Below are positions 6,990 through 50,392 of a stretch of 64,000 nt of DNA, one piece after another. The DNA is from a virus. How positions within the stretch are numbered: position 1 is the stretch's first letter; each line of letters opens with the position of its first letter. Position numbers and translations under genes: made by a program. The notes under the pieces are model-generated. The model made no database searches. It was not told the DNA's origin and saw only the letters and a program-made list of their open reading frames with translations. The stretch covers positions 32,001 to 96,000 of the IMG/VR virus record IMGVR_UViG_3300037516_001783; one strand, given 5' to 3'.

Positions 6990-8323
6990 TACTTGATTTC
7001 GTTAAATTTTATGTTGCCAATATGAGCATCATAATACTGTTTTTGAAGATTTTTGTTGTCTTCAATTTCACTTTTTAATTTATCTATTGTTTGTAAATAA
7101 TTTGTTGGTTTTTTTCTCTCTAAAATGTCAATAATATCTAACTTTTCCTTAGTAGAAACCTTAACAGATTTTAAAGCTTTATTCAACAAAATGATTTCAC
7201 TTTCTGATAAATTATGTTGTTTTTCTTTAGTCCTTAAAACATTATCTGGAGTTCTTTCAAGTAATTCTCCAGAAGGAGTCATAACTATAAAGCCGACATT
7301 TGTTTTTCTTATCAATACACCTTTTGACGGAACACCTTTAACAACACCATTTTCATCTTTTTTTCTTATGGTTAAATCAACATGGTCACCTACAGATAAT
7401 ACACCTCCAAGCTTTTTAGAAATTGTTTCTTCAACAGGTTTTTGCTTTTCAAAATCCTTTTTAATTTCTTCAATTTCTTTGTCTCTTTTACCATATCCAG
7501 GAAGTTCCTGTTTATTTATGGTTGTCCAATCACACTTGGTGTCTGTATAGAAATCACCGTTGTCTTGTAAATCTCCAAGTGTTTTGTATTCTCCAGAAGC
7601 GTCATAAAATTTACCATTCACACCCACAGCAACATGAACATCAGGTTCTCCTTCTGAACCGAACGAATGGTAGGTAGGTTTTAAACCTTTCTCTTCAAGT
7701 AGTTTTCCAAAAGCTTCAGCAAATTCATAACAACCACCACTCATGTACCAACCATCTTCCTTACCTTCTTTAAAGGTTTCTACTAAACTATAAGGGTCTA
7801 CACTGATATTAACACTGTTCTTATGTTTTATTTCGTTAAGGTCTCTGAGTACATTTTTAGGTTTTAATTCACCTGTTTTTCTGTCTCTAATTTGAGTTCT
7901 GATATTAGCTTTTACCTTACCATTACTTTCGTCTAATTTACTGAAAGTTCCTTCAACTTCAGTTCCGTCTTGTAATTTTAATAAAACAATATCACCCTTT
8001 TTGTATTTAGAACTAAGTAGTTTGTCTGGATTTATATGTTCTTTTGAATTAACATCTTCAAATGAACCTTTCCTATATTTCTGTTGGAATTTACTTACAT
8101 CAGTCTTATTAGGATTTATCCAATAGGTTTCCATAACAACCTTACCACCTCTAACAATAGGAGTTACAACCTTCTGTAAATGTGCTAAATTTCTCTCAGC
8201 CTTTTCAAGTTCTGAGATTTTACCATATTTGGAACAAACAATTAATGTTTCATAATCTTCATTAGAAATTACTAAATTGTCTAACGAAAGTTGTTTGAAT
8301 TCAGAAGGTTGTAAGAAAATCAT
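6989..8323 (-). CDS. Putative head protein with two KOW/SH3-like domains flanking a transglutaminase/papain-like domain
   Basis: ELEKA site; YKKGDIV and LSVGDHV beta domains; GGCYEFA...HVAV...FYDASG Cys-His-Asp pattern. Confidence 0.65.
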   Translation of the reverse strand: MIFLQPSEFKQLSLDNLVISNEDYETLIVCSKYGKISELEKAERNLAHLQKVVTPIVRGGKVVMETYWINPNKTDVSKFQQKYRKGSFEDVNSKEHINPDKLLSSKYKKGDIVLLKLQDGTEVEGTFSKLDESNGKVKANIRTQIRDRKTGELKPKNVLRDLNEIKHKNSVNISVDPYSLVETFKEGKEDGWYMSGGCYEFAEAFGKLLEEKGLKPTYHSFGSEGEPDVHVAVGVNGKFYDASGEYKTLGDLQDNGDFYTDTKCDWTTINKQELPGYGKRDKEIEEIKKDFEKQKPVEETISKKLGGVLSVGDHVDLTIRKKDENGVVKGVPSKGVLIRKTNVGFIVMTPSGELLERTPDNVLRTKEKQHNLSESEIILLNKALKSVKVSTKEKLDIIDILERKKPTNYLQTIDKLKSEIEDNKNLQKQYYDAHIGNIKFNEIK

Positions 8324-8582: not shown

Positions 8583-9110
8583 TTAATTCTCTAAAGTTTG
8601 TACCTGTCTCATTGATAAAATGTACTCTTTATTTTGGTCTAAGTTTTTCAACAAAGTATCAACAATTTTCAATTCACCTTTACAGTTTATCATTCTGTAA
8701 ACAGCTTGATTGTGTGATTTGTAATTGTTTGCCTCAACTTGACCACTGATTGGAGATTTATTTTCACCGAACTGTGGAGCGTTAATTTCATTCCAATAAG
8801 TATATTCATCACCATATACCAATAAACCTTCCAACTCATCACAATCACAGTCTTCGTAATAAGGTTTGATAGAAGGTTGACGTTCTAAAACTCCAGAAAG
8901 TGCTGAAACAACTTGATTACAAGCTGAATATTCACCTTCAAGTTTCATTTTCTTAGCTTCCAAAAGAGAAATAATTTCACTACCCATTTTAGGGAATTTT
9001 AAACTATCGTCATAGATAAAACTTGACATACCTTTTTCAAGTTCATCTTTGTTTGAAAAGCTGTTATAGATATTTCTTCTAGTTTGCTCTATTTTTTGTA
9101 TCGCGTCCAT
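8583..9110 (-). CDS. Putative head protein
   Basis: DELEKG site after short leader; lies in head cluster. Confidence 0.55.
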   Translation of the reverse strand: MDAIQKIEQTRRNIYNSFSNKDELEKGMSSFIYDDSLKFPKMGSEIISLLEAKKMKLEGEYSACNQVVSALSGVLERQPSIKPYYEDCDCDELEGLLVYGDEYTYWNEINAPQFGENKSPISGQVEANNYKSHNQAVYRMINCKGELKIVDTLLKNLDQNKEYILSMRQVQTLEN

Positions 9111-30374: not shown

Positions 30375-30725
30375 TTATTTATACCAATCAATATTTAACC
30401 AACCTCCTTCTGTACCGTCAGAATTCCACTGTATAAAGTAAGATTTCATTTTAGGTAACTTTCTGTTTTCATTGTAATAAGAAACAATGAATTCATAATC
30501 ATTTTCTAAGATTTTAACCTTCCTGTAGTTCAACTCTAATTGTGAAACCAAAGGTCTGTAAGAATCTTCACCAATTTCTTCGTAGATTACAAAGTAAACG
30601 TCATTTCCTCTTGGGATATCACCTTCATTCCTTAAAAACAAATCTTTGGTATCTTCATACCTACCAAGTTTTGTAGGTGGTTTTGCTACACAATCTTGTA
30701 ATGTTAAAATATAAACCTTATCCAT
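30375..30725 (-). CDS. Hypothetical protein
   Basis: ORF track, start moved to ATG. Confidence 0.55.
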   Translation of the reverse strand: MDKVYILTLQDCVAKPPTKLGRYEDTKDLFLRNEGDIPRGNDVYFVIYEEIGEDSYRPLVSQLELNYRKVKILENDYEFIVSYYNENRKLPKMKSYFIQWNSDGTEGGWLNIDWYK

Positions 30726-31655: not shown

Positions 31656-31726
31656 TGCCACCCCAATAGGTCTCGAACCTACATCTCTCTGCTCAGAGTA
31701 TTCTCACCGAATTAAACTACAGGGTG
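31656..31726 (-). tRNA. tRNA-like RNA T1, anticodon loop deleted
   Basis: CACCCTG/TGGGGTG acceptor, D-loop GG, CTCTG-AG-CAGAG anticodon arm (2-nt loop), GTAGG-TTCGAGA-CCTAT T-arm, ends GCA. Confidence 0.8.
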
Positions 31727-32756: not shown

Positions 32757-33014
32757 TTACCTATTGTCAAGATTCTTAAGTTGTTTAAGATATTCAGAAA
32801 GAGATTGTTCAGCTTCATTTTTAGAAGATGATATTATTGTACAAATAAATATACCTTTGTAAAAGAAAGTATATTTACTCAAAAAATTATCTATCTTCTC
32901 CACTTCAATTGTAATCTGTTTTGTTGAACACCATTTGATTACAGTCAAAACACACAATGAAATTGAAACTAACAGAATGCTAATTTGAATTGGTTCTGGA
33001 ATTGTACACCACAT
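32757..33014 (-). CDS. Membrane-anchored hypothetical protein
   Basis: N-terminal TM. Confidence 0.5.
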   Translation of the reverse strand: MWCTIPEPIQISILLVSISLCVLTVIKWCSTKQITIEVEKIDNFLSKYTFFYKGIFICTIISSSKNEAEQSLSEYLKQLKNLDNR

Positions 33015-33015
33015 A

Positions 33016-33306
33016 TTACTTATTGTTTAAAGATATAAACCTTTCAATGTCTTGTCTGTATTCTTCGTCAGAAACTAAAACAGAAGTATCTTTGACAGGA
33101 AACCTCTTAGTTCTTTTATCAGACCAGCATGAATGTTTTGTATGAAGAGAATCAAGCTTAAATTGAATCTTAGCTTTTTCTAAACTTATAGCAGTAGAAT
33201 CCTTAATCTTCTCTATTTGTTTGTCTCTTAAGGCTTTTTCATAACCTTGATTGTAGCAGAAAACAATAAGTAAAGTTGAAAATGATAAAATAATTAAATA
33301 CTTCAT
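33016..33306 (-). CDS. Membrane-anchored hypothetical protein
   Basis: N-terminal TM/signal. Confidence 0.55.
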   Translation of the reverse strand: MKYLIILSFSTLLIVFCYNQGYEKALRDKQIEKIKDSTAISLEKAKIQFKLDSLHTKHSCWSDKRTKRFPVKDTSVLVSDEEYRQDIERFISLNNK

Positions 33307-43346: not shown

Positions 43347-43679
43347 TTAGAAATTTTGTAATGAAACTGACTTCAATATTTCTTCAAACATTGCTTTTGC
43401 AATAATATGTTCAACTTCCTTAGAGAACAACATTTCTGAATGTGAAACTGAAAATCGAACTTGTTTTGTTTTACCATTAATTTTGAACTGCAACATATAC
43501 CTTTCTTCTGGATTTATGCCTGCTAACTTGTACATAACAACATCTTGTAACATGTTGTTAGTAACACCTACAGATTCATTTCTTAATTTCTCAACTGCAG
43601 TTTCGATTAAAATTTGCTCCTGAGTTTCTTCAAGCTGTTTTTGTAATTCTACAGCTTTTACTTTCAGTTCACTAACCAT
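43347..43679 (-). CDS. Hypothetical protein
   Basis: ORF track. Confidence 0.55.
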   Translation of the reverse strand: MVSELKVKAVELQKQLEETQEQILIETAVEKLRNESVGVTNNMLQDVVMYKLAGINPEERYMLQFKINGKTKQVRFSVSHSEMLFSKEVEHIIAKAMFEEILKSVSLQNF

Positions 43680-43998
43680 TAGATTGTTCTTTTTCTGAGA
43701 AATACAATTCTACATCATCCCACTCGAAACCCATTTCATCATTGAAATAATCTTCCCAACCATATGGTTGTTTTGTTTCTTCGTCAATTTCTTCATTATA
43801 CATTTCAACCAAGATTATGTTTGAGTAATCTGGTATGAACTTGTTTTCGTATAGAAACAGGTGTTGATTTGCTAAAGTGTTAAGAACCAAGTAAGCTTCT
43901 CTCTCACTTTTCACTTCTACAGCGAAATTCTTACTTACTCCAACCTGAGGAAAGTGTACAACTCTCAGTTTGTTCTTTATTTGTTTGAAATCTTCCAT
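43672..43998 (-). CDS. P22 gp17-like exclusion-escape protein
   Basis: KLRVVHFPQV...F.VEV.S..EA......LA...LF.YEN...PDYSN...E.....W.DY matches my recollection of the P22 gp17 family. Confidence 0.7.
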   Translation of the reverse strand: MEDFKQIKNKLRVVHFPQVGVSKNFAVEVKSEREAYLVLNTLANQHLFLYENKFIPDYSNIILVEMYNEEIDEETKQPYGWEDYFNDEMGFEWDDVELYFSEKEQSNG

Positions 43999-45002: not shown

Positions 45003-45076
45003 TGCCCTGAACCCAAGAATCGAACTTGGACACCTCGAACAATAGGACGAGTACTCTACCATTAAGATAATTCAGG
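45003..45076 (-). tRNA. tRNA-like RNA T2, aberrant 8-10 nt anticodon loop
   Basis: CCTGAAT/GTTCAGG acceptor, AATGGTA D-loop, CTCG-TCCTATTGTT-CGAG arm, CCAAG-TTCGATT-CTTGG T-arm, ends GCA. Confidence 0.8.
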
Positions 45077-47942: not shown

Positions 47943-48230
47943 TTACTTTGTTTTCTTTAACAACTCTAATTCCTCTATTCTAAGTTTTCTCTTTGGTGAG
48001 ATTTTTGCTACAACAACACGGATACCAAACTCATCGTTCAATTTTTCCTTTAATTCATTGTACTTCTGAACATTTTTAACAATCTCTTCGTGATATGCTA
48101 AATTCATGTTTTTCAAAACCCTCATTTCTTCAATTATTGGTCTTGTTACTTTACCATGAGGATATAACCTTTTGTCTGTTAAATCGAATAAATTTACATA
48201 AAAACCTTCTTCACACTTCCCTTGCTTCAT
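47943..48230 (-). CDS. Hypothetical protein
   Basis: ORF track. Confidence 0.55.
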   Translation of the reverse strand: MKQGKCEEGFYVNLFDLTDKRLYPHGKVTRPIIEEMRVLKNMNLAYHEEIVKNVQKYNELKEKLNDEFGIRVVVAKISPKRKLRIEELELLKKTK

Positions 48231-48247
48231 AAAATAATTAAATTTAA

Positions 48248-48390
48248 GTGATTCTGGTAGGAATCGAACCTACAACATTCCCTACTTGCTTACATGTTAC
48301 ATTTAACTACCTAGGATGTTGTTATTTGTGAACAAGAAACCATCAAGAATCCAATTTCGACGTTTAGAACCATTAAACGTCTACAGAACC
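48248..48390 (-). ncRNA. tRNA-like RNA T3 with about 85-nt insert replacing anticodon/variable arms
   Basis: GGTTCTG/CAGAATC acceptor, 8-bp D-like stem GACGTTTA/TAAACGTC with GG in loop, GTAGG-TTCGATT-CCTAC T-arm. Confidence 0.75.
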
Positions 48391-48395
48391 ATATT

Positions 48396-48594
48396 AAAAA
48401 TAAACAAACTCCCTTACCTATCAATAATTACTATCAAGGTTCTGTACTCACATCTTCATCGTTACTCTTCTAAAGTTTACGACTTATAGCTTTTCTTTGA
48501 GGATACCTTTCCGTAATTTGTCGACTTGGACGGTACACTTACAATCAGGACATTAAGTGTAGGCAAATAACTCCTACATTGTTTGTTTATTTTT
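48396..48594 (-). ncRNA. Putative structured ncRNA between T4 and T3
   Basis: 14-bp perfect closing stem aaaaataaacaaac/gtttgtttattttt; internal hairpins. Confidence 0.6.
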
Positions 48595-48665
48595 GCTCTG
48601 GTGAGAGGATTCGAACCTCTGTCTCCCACTGAAAGGACGGCACTCGCCAACTATGCTACACCAGA
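48594..48665 (-). tRNA. tRNA-like RNA T4, shortened and mispaired anticodon arm
   Basis: Perfect TCTGGTG/CACCAGA acceptor, GCAT/GTGC D-stem, CGTCCTTTCAGTGGGAGAC centre, AGAGG-TTCGAAT-CCTCT T-arm, ends GCA. Confidence 0.8.
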
Positions 48666-48674
48666 ACCTTAACA

Positions 48675-48775
48675 ACTTATGTAAATTGCTAAGTACAGTT
48701 CCAAGTCAGCTTCACTTGAATTTCAGACTACTGTACACCTGTATCTTTAAATAAACCACTTTTTACATAAAAGTT
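48675..48775 (-). ncRNA. Putative structured ncRNA 5' of T4
   Basis: aacttatgtaaa/tttacataaaagtt closing stem; inner gtacagt/actgtac helix. Confidence 0.45.
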
Positions 48776-48836
48776 TCAACTACATGTTTTGTTTATTTCA
48801 AGAACCTTAGACTTGTTTTCACATAGGTCTAAGATT

Positions 48837-49016
48837 TTAGTTGTTAATCAGTTCAGACCATCTTTGTATAGTTACTAAGAACATTTCCACAAAGTCACAT
48901 CAATCCCTGATAGGCTTAGATTCTTCCTAATTTACCTGACACAGACATTTCTCTGCATTTTCGTCACTTGATTGTTATAGAACAGACAAGAACAAATAAA
49001 TTAGGTTAACAACTAA
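48837..49016 (-). ncRNA. Putative structured ncRNA
   Basis: 13-bp closing stem ttagttgttaatc/ggttaacaactaa with one imperfect pair; no ORF. Confidence 0.55.
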
Positions 49017-49070
49017 TTTTATTTCCTGTAACTCCAAGTTTGTTAATATTTACTTACTTCAAGTAGGAAT

Positions 49071-49167
49071 TGTAGCTTTCAAGAGATTCGAACTCCCATC
49101 CTTTACAGTTTTCGATTCCTGTATCCTCATTACGAAATGAGTGCTTTATCCATTAAGCTAGAAAGCT
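49071..49167 (-). tRNA. tRNA-like RNA T5, 6-nt anticodon loop and long variable arm
   Basis: Perfect AGCTTTC/GAAAGCT acceptor, GCTT/AAGC D-stem, CTCAT-TTCGTA-ATGAG, TACAG/CTGTA extra arm, GGGAG-TTCGAAT-CTCTT, ends ACA. Confidence 0.8.
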
Positions 49168-49170
49168 GTT

Positions 49171-49259
49171 ATAATTAGACATAACTCTTCTTTGGTTGAG
49201 TTCTTACCATTCTGGGTGGTGCTTACGAAGGTATTACACCCTTTCTCCTCTCTAATTAT
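49171..49259 (-). ncRNA. Putative three-way-junction ncRNA 5' of T5
   Basis: ataattaga/tctaattat closing stem; aactc/gagtt and gggtg/caccc hairpins. Confidence 0.55.
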
Positions 49260-49273
49260 TTTAATTTTCATAA

Positions 49274-49428
49274 ATCAAAACAACCCTACTAACGGAGTCA
49301 AACCATTAACTAAAACATGAAATATTGAAAATTGCGACTTACAATATTTCATTAGTTTGTTAGTGATGTGACTTTCAAACTAATCTTTATGTTAAAGTTT
49401 CTTACACAAGAAGTACGGTTGTTTTGAT
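49274..49428 (-). ncRNA. Putative structured ncRNA
   Basis: 12-bp closing stem atcaaaacaacc/ggttgttttgat; 11-bp inner hairpin atgaaatattg/caatatttcat. Confidence 0.6.
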
Positions 49429-49561
49429 ATTATTTTGCAACTTATTTTATCTTTCGAAATACGTAGTTACCAAACGCCATGCCCCTACATGGTTTATATT
49501 TCCGATTGAAATATAGGTTGAACCTCAAACTTAGTTTCCTAGAGGTTTGAGATTTAGTGTC

Positions 49562-50392
49562 TTATTTTTTGATATTTATCATATCGTAGAAACCTGATTG
49601 AGTTACATACTGAGGCATAGGGCATCCAGCTTTCGTCCAACCTTCTATAGCTTTTTCTTTTATAGCTATTTCTCTTTCTTGAAGTAATAACGCTGTTACA
49701 CCTAATGACCTTGCTCTACTTGCTTCAGAGTTTAAATTAGCAAGTTCAATTTCTTTCTTGGTGTTAGCTAACTTTTTATCTAATATCGCACTTTCACCTT
49801 CAACCTTGTTTCTTTCAGCAATTTTAGCTTTCATTTCTGGTGTGAACGACAGTTGTGAAGAGTATGTTAGTAATTCGAACCCAGCCTTGTCAAATATCTT
49901 TCTAAGAGAATCTGTACACATTTTCTCATATTTCAACTTACCACCGTTGTTCATTAATTGTTCATCCGATAATGAGTTAGAAATCTCTCTGGAAATATCT
50001 TTGATTCTTGGGTCTAATATTTGGTCTTCAATCATATCGAGGTCTATATTATCTCCTAAATGTTTATAATTGAAAACAATATTTATACCTTGACCAACCT
50101 TCGCTCTATAAGTATAGATAGGACTAACAAAGAAATCGGTATTATCTGTAGAACTTATTGTTAATTTATCACCATAATCACCTTTTTGTTCATAAAGTGG
50201 AACTTGAAATAATTCACTTCCAGCAGTCCAAGTGGCAACTTTTCCTGTTACTCTATGGAAATCAGATTTACCATCCTTACCATAATTTTCCATCATTACA
50301 CCTTCGTGGTTAGGTTTTACCCAATCATTACAAGAGGATAACAACATGATTGCTCCTAAGAGCATGACCAAATTAAATGCTACTTTTTTCAT
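49562..50392 (-). CDS. SPFH/band-7 family lipoprotein
   Basis: LLSSC lipobox; VKPNHEGV..ENYG...VPLYEQ; C-terminal coiled coil and IEGW. Confidence 0.8.
   Translation of the reverse strand: MKKVAFNLVMLLGAIMLLSSCNDWVKPNHEGVMMENYGKDGKSDFHRVTGKVATWTAGSELFQVPLYEQKGDYGDKLTISSTDNTDFFVSPIYTYRAKVGQGINIVFNYKHLGDNIDLDMIEDQILDPRIKDISREISNSLSDEQLMNNGGKLKYEKMCTDSLRKIFDKAGFELLTYSSQLSFTPEMKAKIAERNKVEGESAILDKKLANTKKEIELANLNSEASRARSLGVTALLLQEREIAIKEKAIEGWTKAGCPMPQYVTQSGFYDMINIKK

Follow-up and report, generated by a model that had tools for sequence, protein, structure and literature searches.

A phage gene that begins and ends as a tRNA gene does, and carries something else in its middle, raises the question of which RNA it encodes and whether that middle has a use. 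Such an element occupies positions 48249–48390 (minus strand) of the window, by which we mean the whole 64,000-nt stretch analysed here, bases 32001–96000 of a 107,935-bp IMG/VR virus record rated 100% complete. The window has 31% G+C and nearly all of its genes on the minus strand, and the standard genetic code fits it, coding being dense under table 11 and TGA closing 10 long frames. The element measures 142 nt from G1 to the discriminator A (RNA position p is window coordinate 48391−p on the minus strand) and forms the 3′ end of the region's only long ORF-free stretch (48231–49561, minus strand), which also holds two Rfam-scored tRNAs. The sequence bearing it was identical, with zero differences, in the four lake-water metagenome runs compared, one of which is the probable source; no RNA run was listed as carrying the locus.

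A tRNA frame around an insert

Read on the minus strand, the two ends are those of a tRNA, as the initial annotation of this DNA had claimed. The acceptor 5′ strand GGUUCUG (48384–48390), preceded by U(−1) and followed by U8-A9 (48383–48382), makes 7/7 pairs with the 3′ strand CAGAAUC (48250–48256), one of them a G.U (G2.U71). The T arm GUAGG-UUCGAUU-CCUAC (48257–48273) is canonical with a 5-bp stem, and the discriminator A (48249) ends the gene with no encoded CCA. In the D position lies a hairpin of 8 bp with a 7-nt loop, GACGUUUA-AUGGUUC-UAAACGUC (48359–48381). An insert of about 85 nt (48274–48358) runs from this hairpin to the T arm and, again as annotated, takes the place of the anticodon and variable arms. 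Past the discriminator, an AU-rich trailer, CUUAAAUUUAA (48238–48248, on the minus strand like all these features), continues to the ATG at 48230.

A regular-expression scan for frames of this type (U8, a 7-bp acceptor within 60–260 nt, and a T arm with a 5-bp stem and a canonical loop) returned three in the real window, two tRNAs and the element, against 0.01 expected per dinucleotide-shuffled window. The D-position hairpin is far stabler than its shuffles (z = −3.85); the insert on its own is not (z = +0.21). The frame of the element is real, and the window sequence by itself gives no sign that the insert folds.

A homologue in a distant phage

Evidence on the insert came from a homologue, L086:5160–5310, on a 195-kb phage contig with 27% G+C, which was found by a pattern of the 5′ ten bases, a gap of 95–125 nt and the T loop. 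The two copies are 78.4% identical over 125 nt (blastn, E 2e-21), and a covariance model built from L086 alone (R2) scores the window copy at 91 bits (E 5e-23). By blastn the element is the only sizeable nucleotide similarity between the L086 locus and the whole 108-kb genome. When the whole 195-kb contig was compared with the window phage, about ten proteins matched at 21–59% identity, the best stretch common to both being 59% over 102 residues once a 39-residue match of a plus-strand ORF is disregarded. TerL and a helicase gave no match between the two phages, and the remainder of the 1.3-kb RNA array in which the window copy lies is absent from the L086 phage. A paralogue search found no second frame of the element's kind in the 108-kb genome, and the element is single-copy in both phages.

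Identity between the copies is a mosaic. The acceptor 5′ strand with U8-A9 is 100% identical, as are the two leader bases AU before the acceptor and the eleven bases of the trailer, and the T arm is 88% identical. Within the insert, positions 33–61 (48330–48358), which comprise the linker and the 5′ strand of a long arm described below, form the best-conserved block at 90% (26/29 identical), positions 66–87, an apical hairpin, stand at 86%, and positions 88–108, with indels, at 50%. The D-position hairpin is only 32% identical, and a hairpin is nonetheless present in both, that of L086 having z = −2.75 against shuffles. What had been annotated as an 8-bp D arm thus holds as an 8-bp hairpin in the window and fails as a conserved D arm, L086 having a different hairpin without a GG loop. 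Unrelated ORFs begin 18 nt (window) and 17 nt (L086) past the discriminator.

This pattern of identity is as expected for selection on an RNA. The pairing of the 5′ and 3′ ends, whose absence from homologues had been named beforehand as refuting the initial annotation, persists in L086. That such an RNA, insert included, is kept at 78% identity between phages otherwise sharing almost nothing argues that the insert does something. That identity could come partly from recent transfer and not from long selection.

The known family of the element has two members, the window copy and L086. An exact 24-mer spanning the T arm and acceptor had no match in IMG/VR, a D-loop to T-loop pattern gave two matches, both unrelated, and a pattern of the insert blocks returned L086 only in IMG/VR and, in GTDB genomes, 120 rows of which 0 were similar by BLAST. 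A pattern joining the insert end to the T arm drew just ordinary tRNAs of many identities. BLAST against 50,697 cultured-phage records gave nothing beyond T-arm matches, and when about 200 loci were scanned with a covariance model (R1), every match was a tRNA or an unrelated long frame. Of the searches by neighbouring genes, that with the lipoprotein gene led to two contigs (L002 and L003), which share just that gene, and that with TerL, in IMG/VR and JGI metagenomes, led to relatives at about 45% identity only, almost free of tRNAs. Close relatives of the window phage were not found in the collections searched.

Fold of the insert

An RNAalifold consensus of the two copies places a long irregular arm where the anticodon arm would be (48277–48350; positions 41–114). 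It comprises a basal helix AUUCUU/GGGAAU, a middle helix and an apical hairpin (48304–48325; positions 66–87) with a 7-nt, anticodon-like loop AUCCUAG. All pairs of the consensus are kept in both copies (36/36), 5 of them by double changes, where slid controls gave 0–1. We also ran a covariation test with less circularity, its covariance model consisting of the L086 sequence and its own minimum-energy fold. Aligned to this structure, 97.8% of cells are paired and 8 pairs are double-changed, of which the D-position hairpin has four, the arm three and the T stem one; no more than 1/500 shuffles reach these pairing values and slid controls gave 0–2, figures that amount to support and not proof, the alignment having been fitted to the tested structure with two sequences only. 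The L086 insert folds far better than its shuffles (z = −3.25), into a basal helix of 6–7 bp, an internal loop, then an 11-bp helix capped by the apical hairpin, an architecture that matches that of the window copy. The insert is thus conserved, at 86–90% in two blocks, and carries covarying pairs, as its annotation as a structured domain would have it.

Individual changes between the copies preserve pairing. The closing pair of the apical hairpin goes from C-G in the window to U-A in L086, with the loop changing from AUCCUAG to AUUCUAG; an A-U pair of the window T stem is U.G in L086; and in the acceptor stem G2.U71 becomes G-C and U3-A70 becomes U.G. In the middle helix, whichever of two registers is taken, the window has AC facing GU where L086 has GU facing AC. 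Those two registers exist in the window copy because of a 7-nt tandem duplication, AUGUAAC/AUGUAAG, in the 3′ strand of the arm (48289–48302), and the choice between them is ambiguous there, the thermodynamic optimum and the L086-like register being 4.7 kcal/mol apart in constrained folds.

The initial annotation had singled out a different helix, AACAUCCUA / UAGGGAAUGUU. It can form, with 9 bp and a 2-nt bulge, but it is not the best-supported pairing: its ensemble probability is 0.2–0.4, the hairpin it closes has z = −0.02 against shuffles, and 8/9 of its pairs are kept in L086 with zero double changes. It uses strands of the apical hairpin and of the basal helix, and so competes with the fold that L086 supports better. 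Covariation between the two sequences favours the long irregular arm in the anticodon-arm place more than this helix. Our best current model of the element, in order, is an acceptor stem, a variable hairpin, an irregular arm of roughly 75 nt, and the T arm after three unpaired bases. With two members only and several registers that fit, the fold given here for the arm is provisional.

The apical loop, of 7 nt with U second and A sixth, resembles the anticodon loop of an arginine tRNA with a YCU anticodon. In the modelled fold its distance from the core would be about 20 bp too great for decoding, and the likeness to arginine tRNA is only a lead.

Comparison with known tRNA-type RNAs

Of the parts of a canonical tRNA, the element has the 7-bp acceptor stem, the discriminator and the 5-bp T stem with a UUCRANY loop. 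A D arm of 3–4 bp with a G18–G19 loop is absent, the window having an 8-bp stem and L086 a hairpin with a CGC loop, and no tRNA-style anticodon arm (5 bp and a 7-nt loop with U33, one base past the D stem and separated from the T stem by 4–5 nt or a variable arm) was found, even after one excision. ARAGORN did not call the element, with or without its intron and tmRNA modes. In Rfam, searched at E up to 10, nothing appeared besides a partial match to the tRNA family RF00005 (model positions 7–64), which scored 18.5 bits against a curated cut-off of 29; a comparison with tRNA, tmRNA and bacterial Y RNA models, proposed when the element was first noted, thus gave only this sub-cut-off tRNA match. 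The wrong D and anticodon arms, the low Rfam score and the lack of an ARAGORN call rule out a canonical tRNA. Removing a segment does not change this: all single-deletion variants 68–98 nt long were run through ARAGORN and 0 were called, and no excision leaves an anticodon arm with at least 4/5 pairs adjoining the D and T arms. With no one-segment removal restoring the cloverleaf, a single-intron tRNA, of group I or Lak type, is rejected. A group I intron is also rejected, there being no Rfam intron match at E up to 10. An insert of 85 nt is too short for a group I catalytic core.

For tmRNA, the pair at 3–70 is U3-A70 in the window and U3.G70 in L086, so that G3-U70 is absent as had been claimed, and neither ARAGORN -m nor Rfam gives a call. 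A tmRNA-like tag frame within the insert was rejected too, the short AUG frames being unconserved (10 codons in the window, 5 in L086). Canonical tRNA, tmRNA and single-intron tRNA are therefore excluded because detectors, deletion tests, pair 3–70 and the unconserved AUG frames all fail them. Among further candidates, YrlA or another bacterial Y RNA was set aside because the ends of the element sit in the acceptor stem and Rfam shows no match; hammerhead or HDV-like ribozymes have no Rfam match, and a hammerhead core was not seen by eye; and the newly described tRNA mimics (skipping-rope and others) likewise have no Rfam match to the element. The original description is borne out in these points: the element is a tRNA frame round a foreign folded insert, and neither a tRNA nor a tmRNA nor a group I intron.

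Closer counterparts are annotated in cultured phages. The T5 record NC_005859 lists RNA1 (30501–30644) and RNA2 (32959–33083) as 'tRNA-like stable RNA with unknown functions'. Like the element, these RNAs of 144 and 125 nt are phage-encoded amid tRNA genes (the T5 pair having other stable RNAs nearby), have their 5′ end paired with a 3′ strand that comes after a canonical T arm (7/7 pairs in RNA2, 6/7 in RNA1), and carry a non-tRNA insert in between. RNA1 differs in keeping a leucine-type D arm where the element has a non-conserved hairpin, and the T5 RNAs are annotated as stable RNAs in infected cells whereas the element is known here from its sequence alone. In the T4 record NC_000866, rnaC (70908–71046, 'species 1 RNA') and rnaD (species 2 RNA) end the tRNA cluster. 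The last gene of that cluster, the 139-nt rnaC, resembles the element in having a canonical T arm by the 3′ end and an interior that is highly folded (z = −4.6 in rnaC), but its acceptor-like stem is imperfect, with 5/7 pairs and two U-U. No sequence homology links the element to the T4 and T5 RNAs, only matches of 7–13 nt in tRNA consensus motifs, and Rfam has no family for T4 species 1 or species 2 RNA or for T5 RNA1 or RNA2. The element has the features of a phage tRNA-like stable RNA: it lies beside tRNA genes, falls within 120–145 nt, and joins paired ends and a canonical T arm to a non-tRNA interior. Its design is not new in kind, T4 species 1 and T5 RNA1/RNA2 sharing the frame; what is new is the two-member family, which, unlike T5 RNA1 and a type seen in L003 (below), has no leucine-type D arm.

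Three other systems bear a partial likeness. The tRNA-like domain of tmRNA with helix H2 also joins an acceptor stem and T arm to a long irregular helix at the place of the anticodon stem, but the element is less than half the length of tmRNA and has neither G3-U70 nor a conserved tag frame. YrlA RNAs are reportedly in part phage-borne. In YrlA (Chen et al. 2014, PMC4201824), as in the element, a tRNA-like module is joined to a long helix, there a protein-binding platform, but in YrlA that helix holds the RNA ends while a loop closes the acceptor-like stem, so that the topology of the element is reversed. The tRNA genes of Lak megaphages said to contain 'enigmatic introns' (Devoto et al. 2019, PMC6784885) are, like the element, oversized tRNA-type genes of uncultured Bacteroidota phages with conserved extra sequence, but they are classifiable tRNAs after removal of one segment, which does not restore a cloverleaf in the element.

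Hosts and genome setting

Shine-Dalgarno motifs precede 7% of long ORFs in the window phage (G000) and 1% in the L086-bearing contig (G006), and leaders are A/U-rich in both. Because Shine-Dalgarno sites are nearly absent, Bacteroidota hosts are suggested, and both are probably phages of Bacteroidota, judging by these leaders.

The genes next to the element and the small proteins shared by the two phages have no informative Pfam or PHROG match, and no protein partner was found. Elsewhere in the window, a 108-aa protein (43672–43998, minus strand) has a Pfam match (E 3e-14) to GP17, the superinfection exclusion gene product 17. Adjoining the ORF-free stretch is a lipoprotein-like gene (phrog_200; 49562–50392, minus strand) whose protein is 75–83% identical to those of genes on the two contigs mentioned above, L002 and L003. 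The gene looks mobile, because these contigs have no other gene in common with the window phage among the eight neighbouring genes tested, TerL included.

Interpretation

We consider it probable, at roughly 0.6, that the element is a genuine, selected gene for a stable, non-decoding, tRNA-framed small RNA of the T4 species 1 and T5 RNA1–RNA2 kind, with the conserved arm as its working part. The main rival to this reading is a cis-acting processing signal, or t-element, in which the frame is kept just for cutting of a polycistronic transcript by RNase P and a 3′ nuclease, and the excised RNA has no role. The cuts would split the upstream RNA from the downstream mRNA and give the latter a short, unstructured leader. 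Unrelated ORFs 17–18 nt after the discriminator in both phages fit this, as do the identical AU-rich trailer, the absence of a terminator between element and downstream ORF, and a strong helix that ends 5–8 nt ahead of G1 in both phages. So do the leaders, A/U-rich in two phages where Shine-Dalgarno sites precede just 7% and 1% of ORFs, and the remaining tRNA-like genes of the window phage, which keep acceptor, D and T arms with odd anticodon arms. No sigma-70-type promoter for the downstream ORF was found inside the element on the minus strand. The 17–18-nt spacing is weak evidence, however, since short intergenic spacers are the rule in these genomes, and processing has no need of the insert, which yet holds the best-conserved blocks (90% and 86%) and compensated pairs. 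We regard a cis-acting signal without a product of its own as unlikely; the cis-acting and stable-RNA readings are in any case compatible, not exclusive.

The same blocks and pairs weigh against the view that the element is under no selection for RNA function, being a tRNA gene in decay or a relic of recent transfer. Such a relic would fit the thermodynamically unremarkable window insert, the two copies known in all with no homologue among 50,697 cultured-phage records, and a sequence identical across four lake-water runs, with no population variation. Neutral decay would not, though, yield blocks of 100, 90 and 86% identity next to blocks of 32 and 50%, nor 8 compensated pairs with almost none broken, nor a D-position hairpin that is kept though its sequence was replaced, and we consider a relic very unlikely. 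Very unlikely too, in our view, is a working or intron-bearing tRNA-Arg in which the apical hairpin, its loop reading A-U-CCU-A-G in the window and A-U-UCU-A-G in L086, would serve as anticodon arm, with its flanks removed or tolerated. The 7-nt loop with U second and A sixth, the YCU in both copies, the covarying closing pair (C-G to U-A) and the precedent of the Lak tRNAs with 'enigmatic introns' (PMC6784885) are what speak for it. Against it, 36 and 32 nt of extra sequence flank the apical hairpin and pair with each other, which puts the loop some 20 bp too far out; no single excision gives a cloverleaf and a group I core is absent; and the D-position hairpin of L086 has no GG loop. The inferred hosts, moreover, are bacteria, which are not known to have a tRNA splicing endonuclease.

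If the element does encode a stable RNA, it would be cotranscribed with the upstream RNA array. An acceptor–T minihelix with U(−1)/G1 is a substrate of RNase P, which would cut at U(−1)/G1; a CCA-less 3′ end with an AU-rich trailer is open to cleavage of the RNase Z or RNase E type and to CCA addition, and a 3′ endonuclease or trimming activity would cut at or after A73 within the trailer, CCA possibly being added after cleavage. Ends of the tRNA type shield an RNA from exonucleases, and the tRNA-like ends would here confer stability. The conserved arm would be the working part and would bind a partner from the host or the phage, acting as a guide or else as a decoy or sponge, while the same cuts would release the upstream RNA module and leave the downstream mRNA a leader of 17–18 nt. 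The scaffold role first proposed for the frame, that of stabilising and displaying a functional domain, is likewise inferred.

A trans-acting role for the element is a guess. In one form of it, which we put forward as distinctly speculative and rather improbable, the RNA would be an effector that acts in trans and is exchanged among unrelated Bacteroidota phages. Its tRNA-like ends would give entry to host tRNA maturation and protection, and its arm, which presents a conserved strand and the anticodon-like A-U-YCU-A-G loop, would be a decoy or sponge for some tRNA-directed host factor, such as an anticodon nuclease or a different defence enzyme aimed at tRNA. T4 species 1 and T5 RNA1/RNA2 have been known for decades and are still without a function or an Rfam entry; were the decoy reading true, the RNA would be a counter-defence weapon and the first function for the T4 species 1 and T5 RNA1 class. 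An arm acting as a decoy for a tRNA-directed host enzyme would also place the class among the tRNA-centred moves, ever more of which are known, that phages and bacteria make against each other (PMC10264068 gives an example).

Neighbouring RNAs and other long frames

Upstream of the element, the 1.3-kb ORF-free stretch (48231–49561, minus strand) is tiled by modules, each closed by its own terminal helix. A perfect 14-bp helix closes the module at 48396–48594, and the module at 49274–49428 is very strongly folded (z = −6.4), the others having z = −0.8 to −2.5. None of the modules was matched in Rfam and none is present in the L086 phage. About 50 nt upstream of the element, UACAGAACC (48438–48446, minus strand) is complementary at all 9 nt to the acceptor 5′ strand with U8-A9, by which an alternative hairpin is possible. 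It was rejected as a conserved feature, being absent upstream of the L086 copy, and is probably a matter of chance or specific to the lineage.

All four Rfam-scored tRNAs of the window phage have odd anticodon arms, and each is followed by N73-CAA; ARAGORN calls only 2/4 of them. All lie on the minus strand. The one at 49073–49167 has a 5-bp anticodon stem, a 6-nt loop UUCGUA and a 25-nt variable arm, and that at 48596–48665 has a UCA anticodon on a mismatched stem, though the phage stops at TGA. At 45005–45076 an 8-nt loop is closed by U-U, and at 31658–31726 a 4-bp stem bears a 6-nt loop, with a variable region of 2 nt. These four may not be ordinary decoders either.

Similar frames occur in other phages. 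On L003, a 126-kb phage contig, a 119-nt frame (7927–8045) has a leucine-type D arm, GUGG-AAUUGGUAGA-CAC, and an insert of roughly 70 nt, and an 81-nt odd tRNA (8680–8760) scores 30.7 bits in Rfam and is missed by ARAGORN. Among about 200 phage loci, fetched for other reasons, we counted 22 more distinct tRNA frames of 100–180 nt that ARAGORN does not call (for example L080:6579–6717), and because of these the class is judged common in uncultured phages and missed by tRNA finders. Several of the 22 share insert motifs, either GGTTATC with ACGGACAGCAAT or CCCTTGT...ACTGA...GGTTATCG, which suggests further families.
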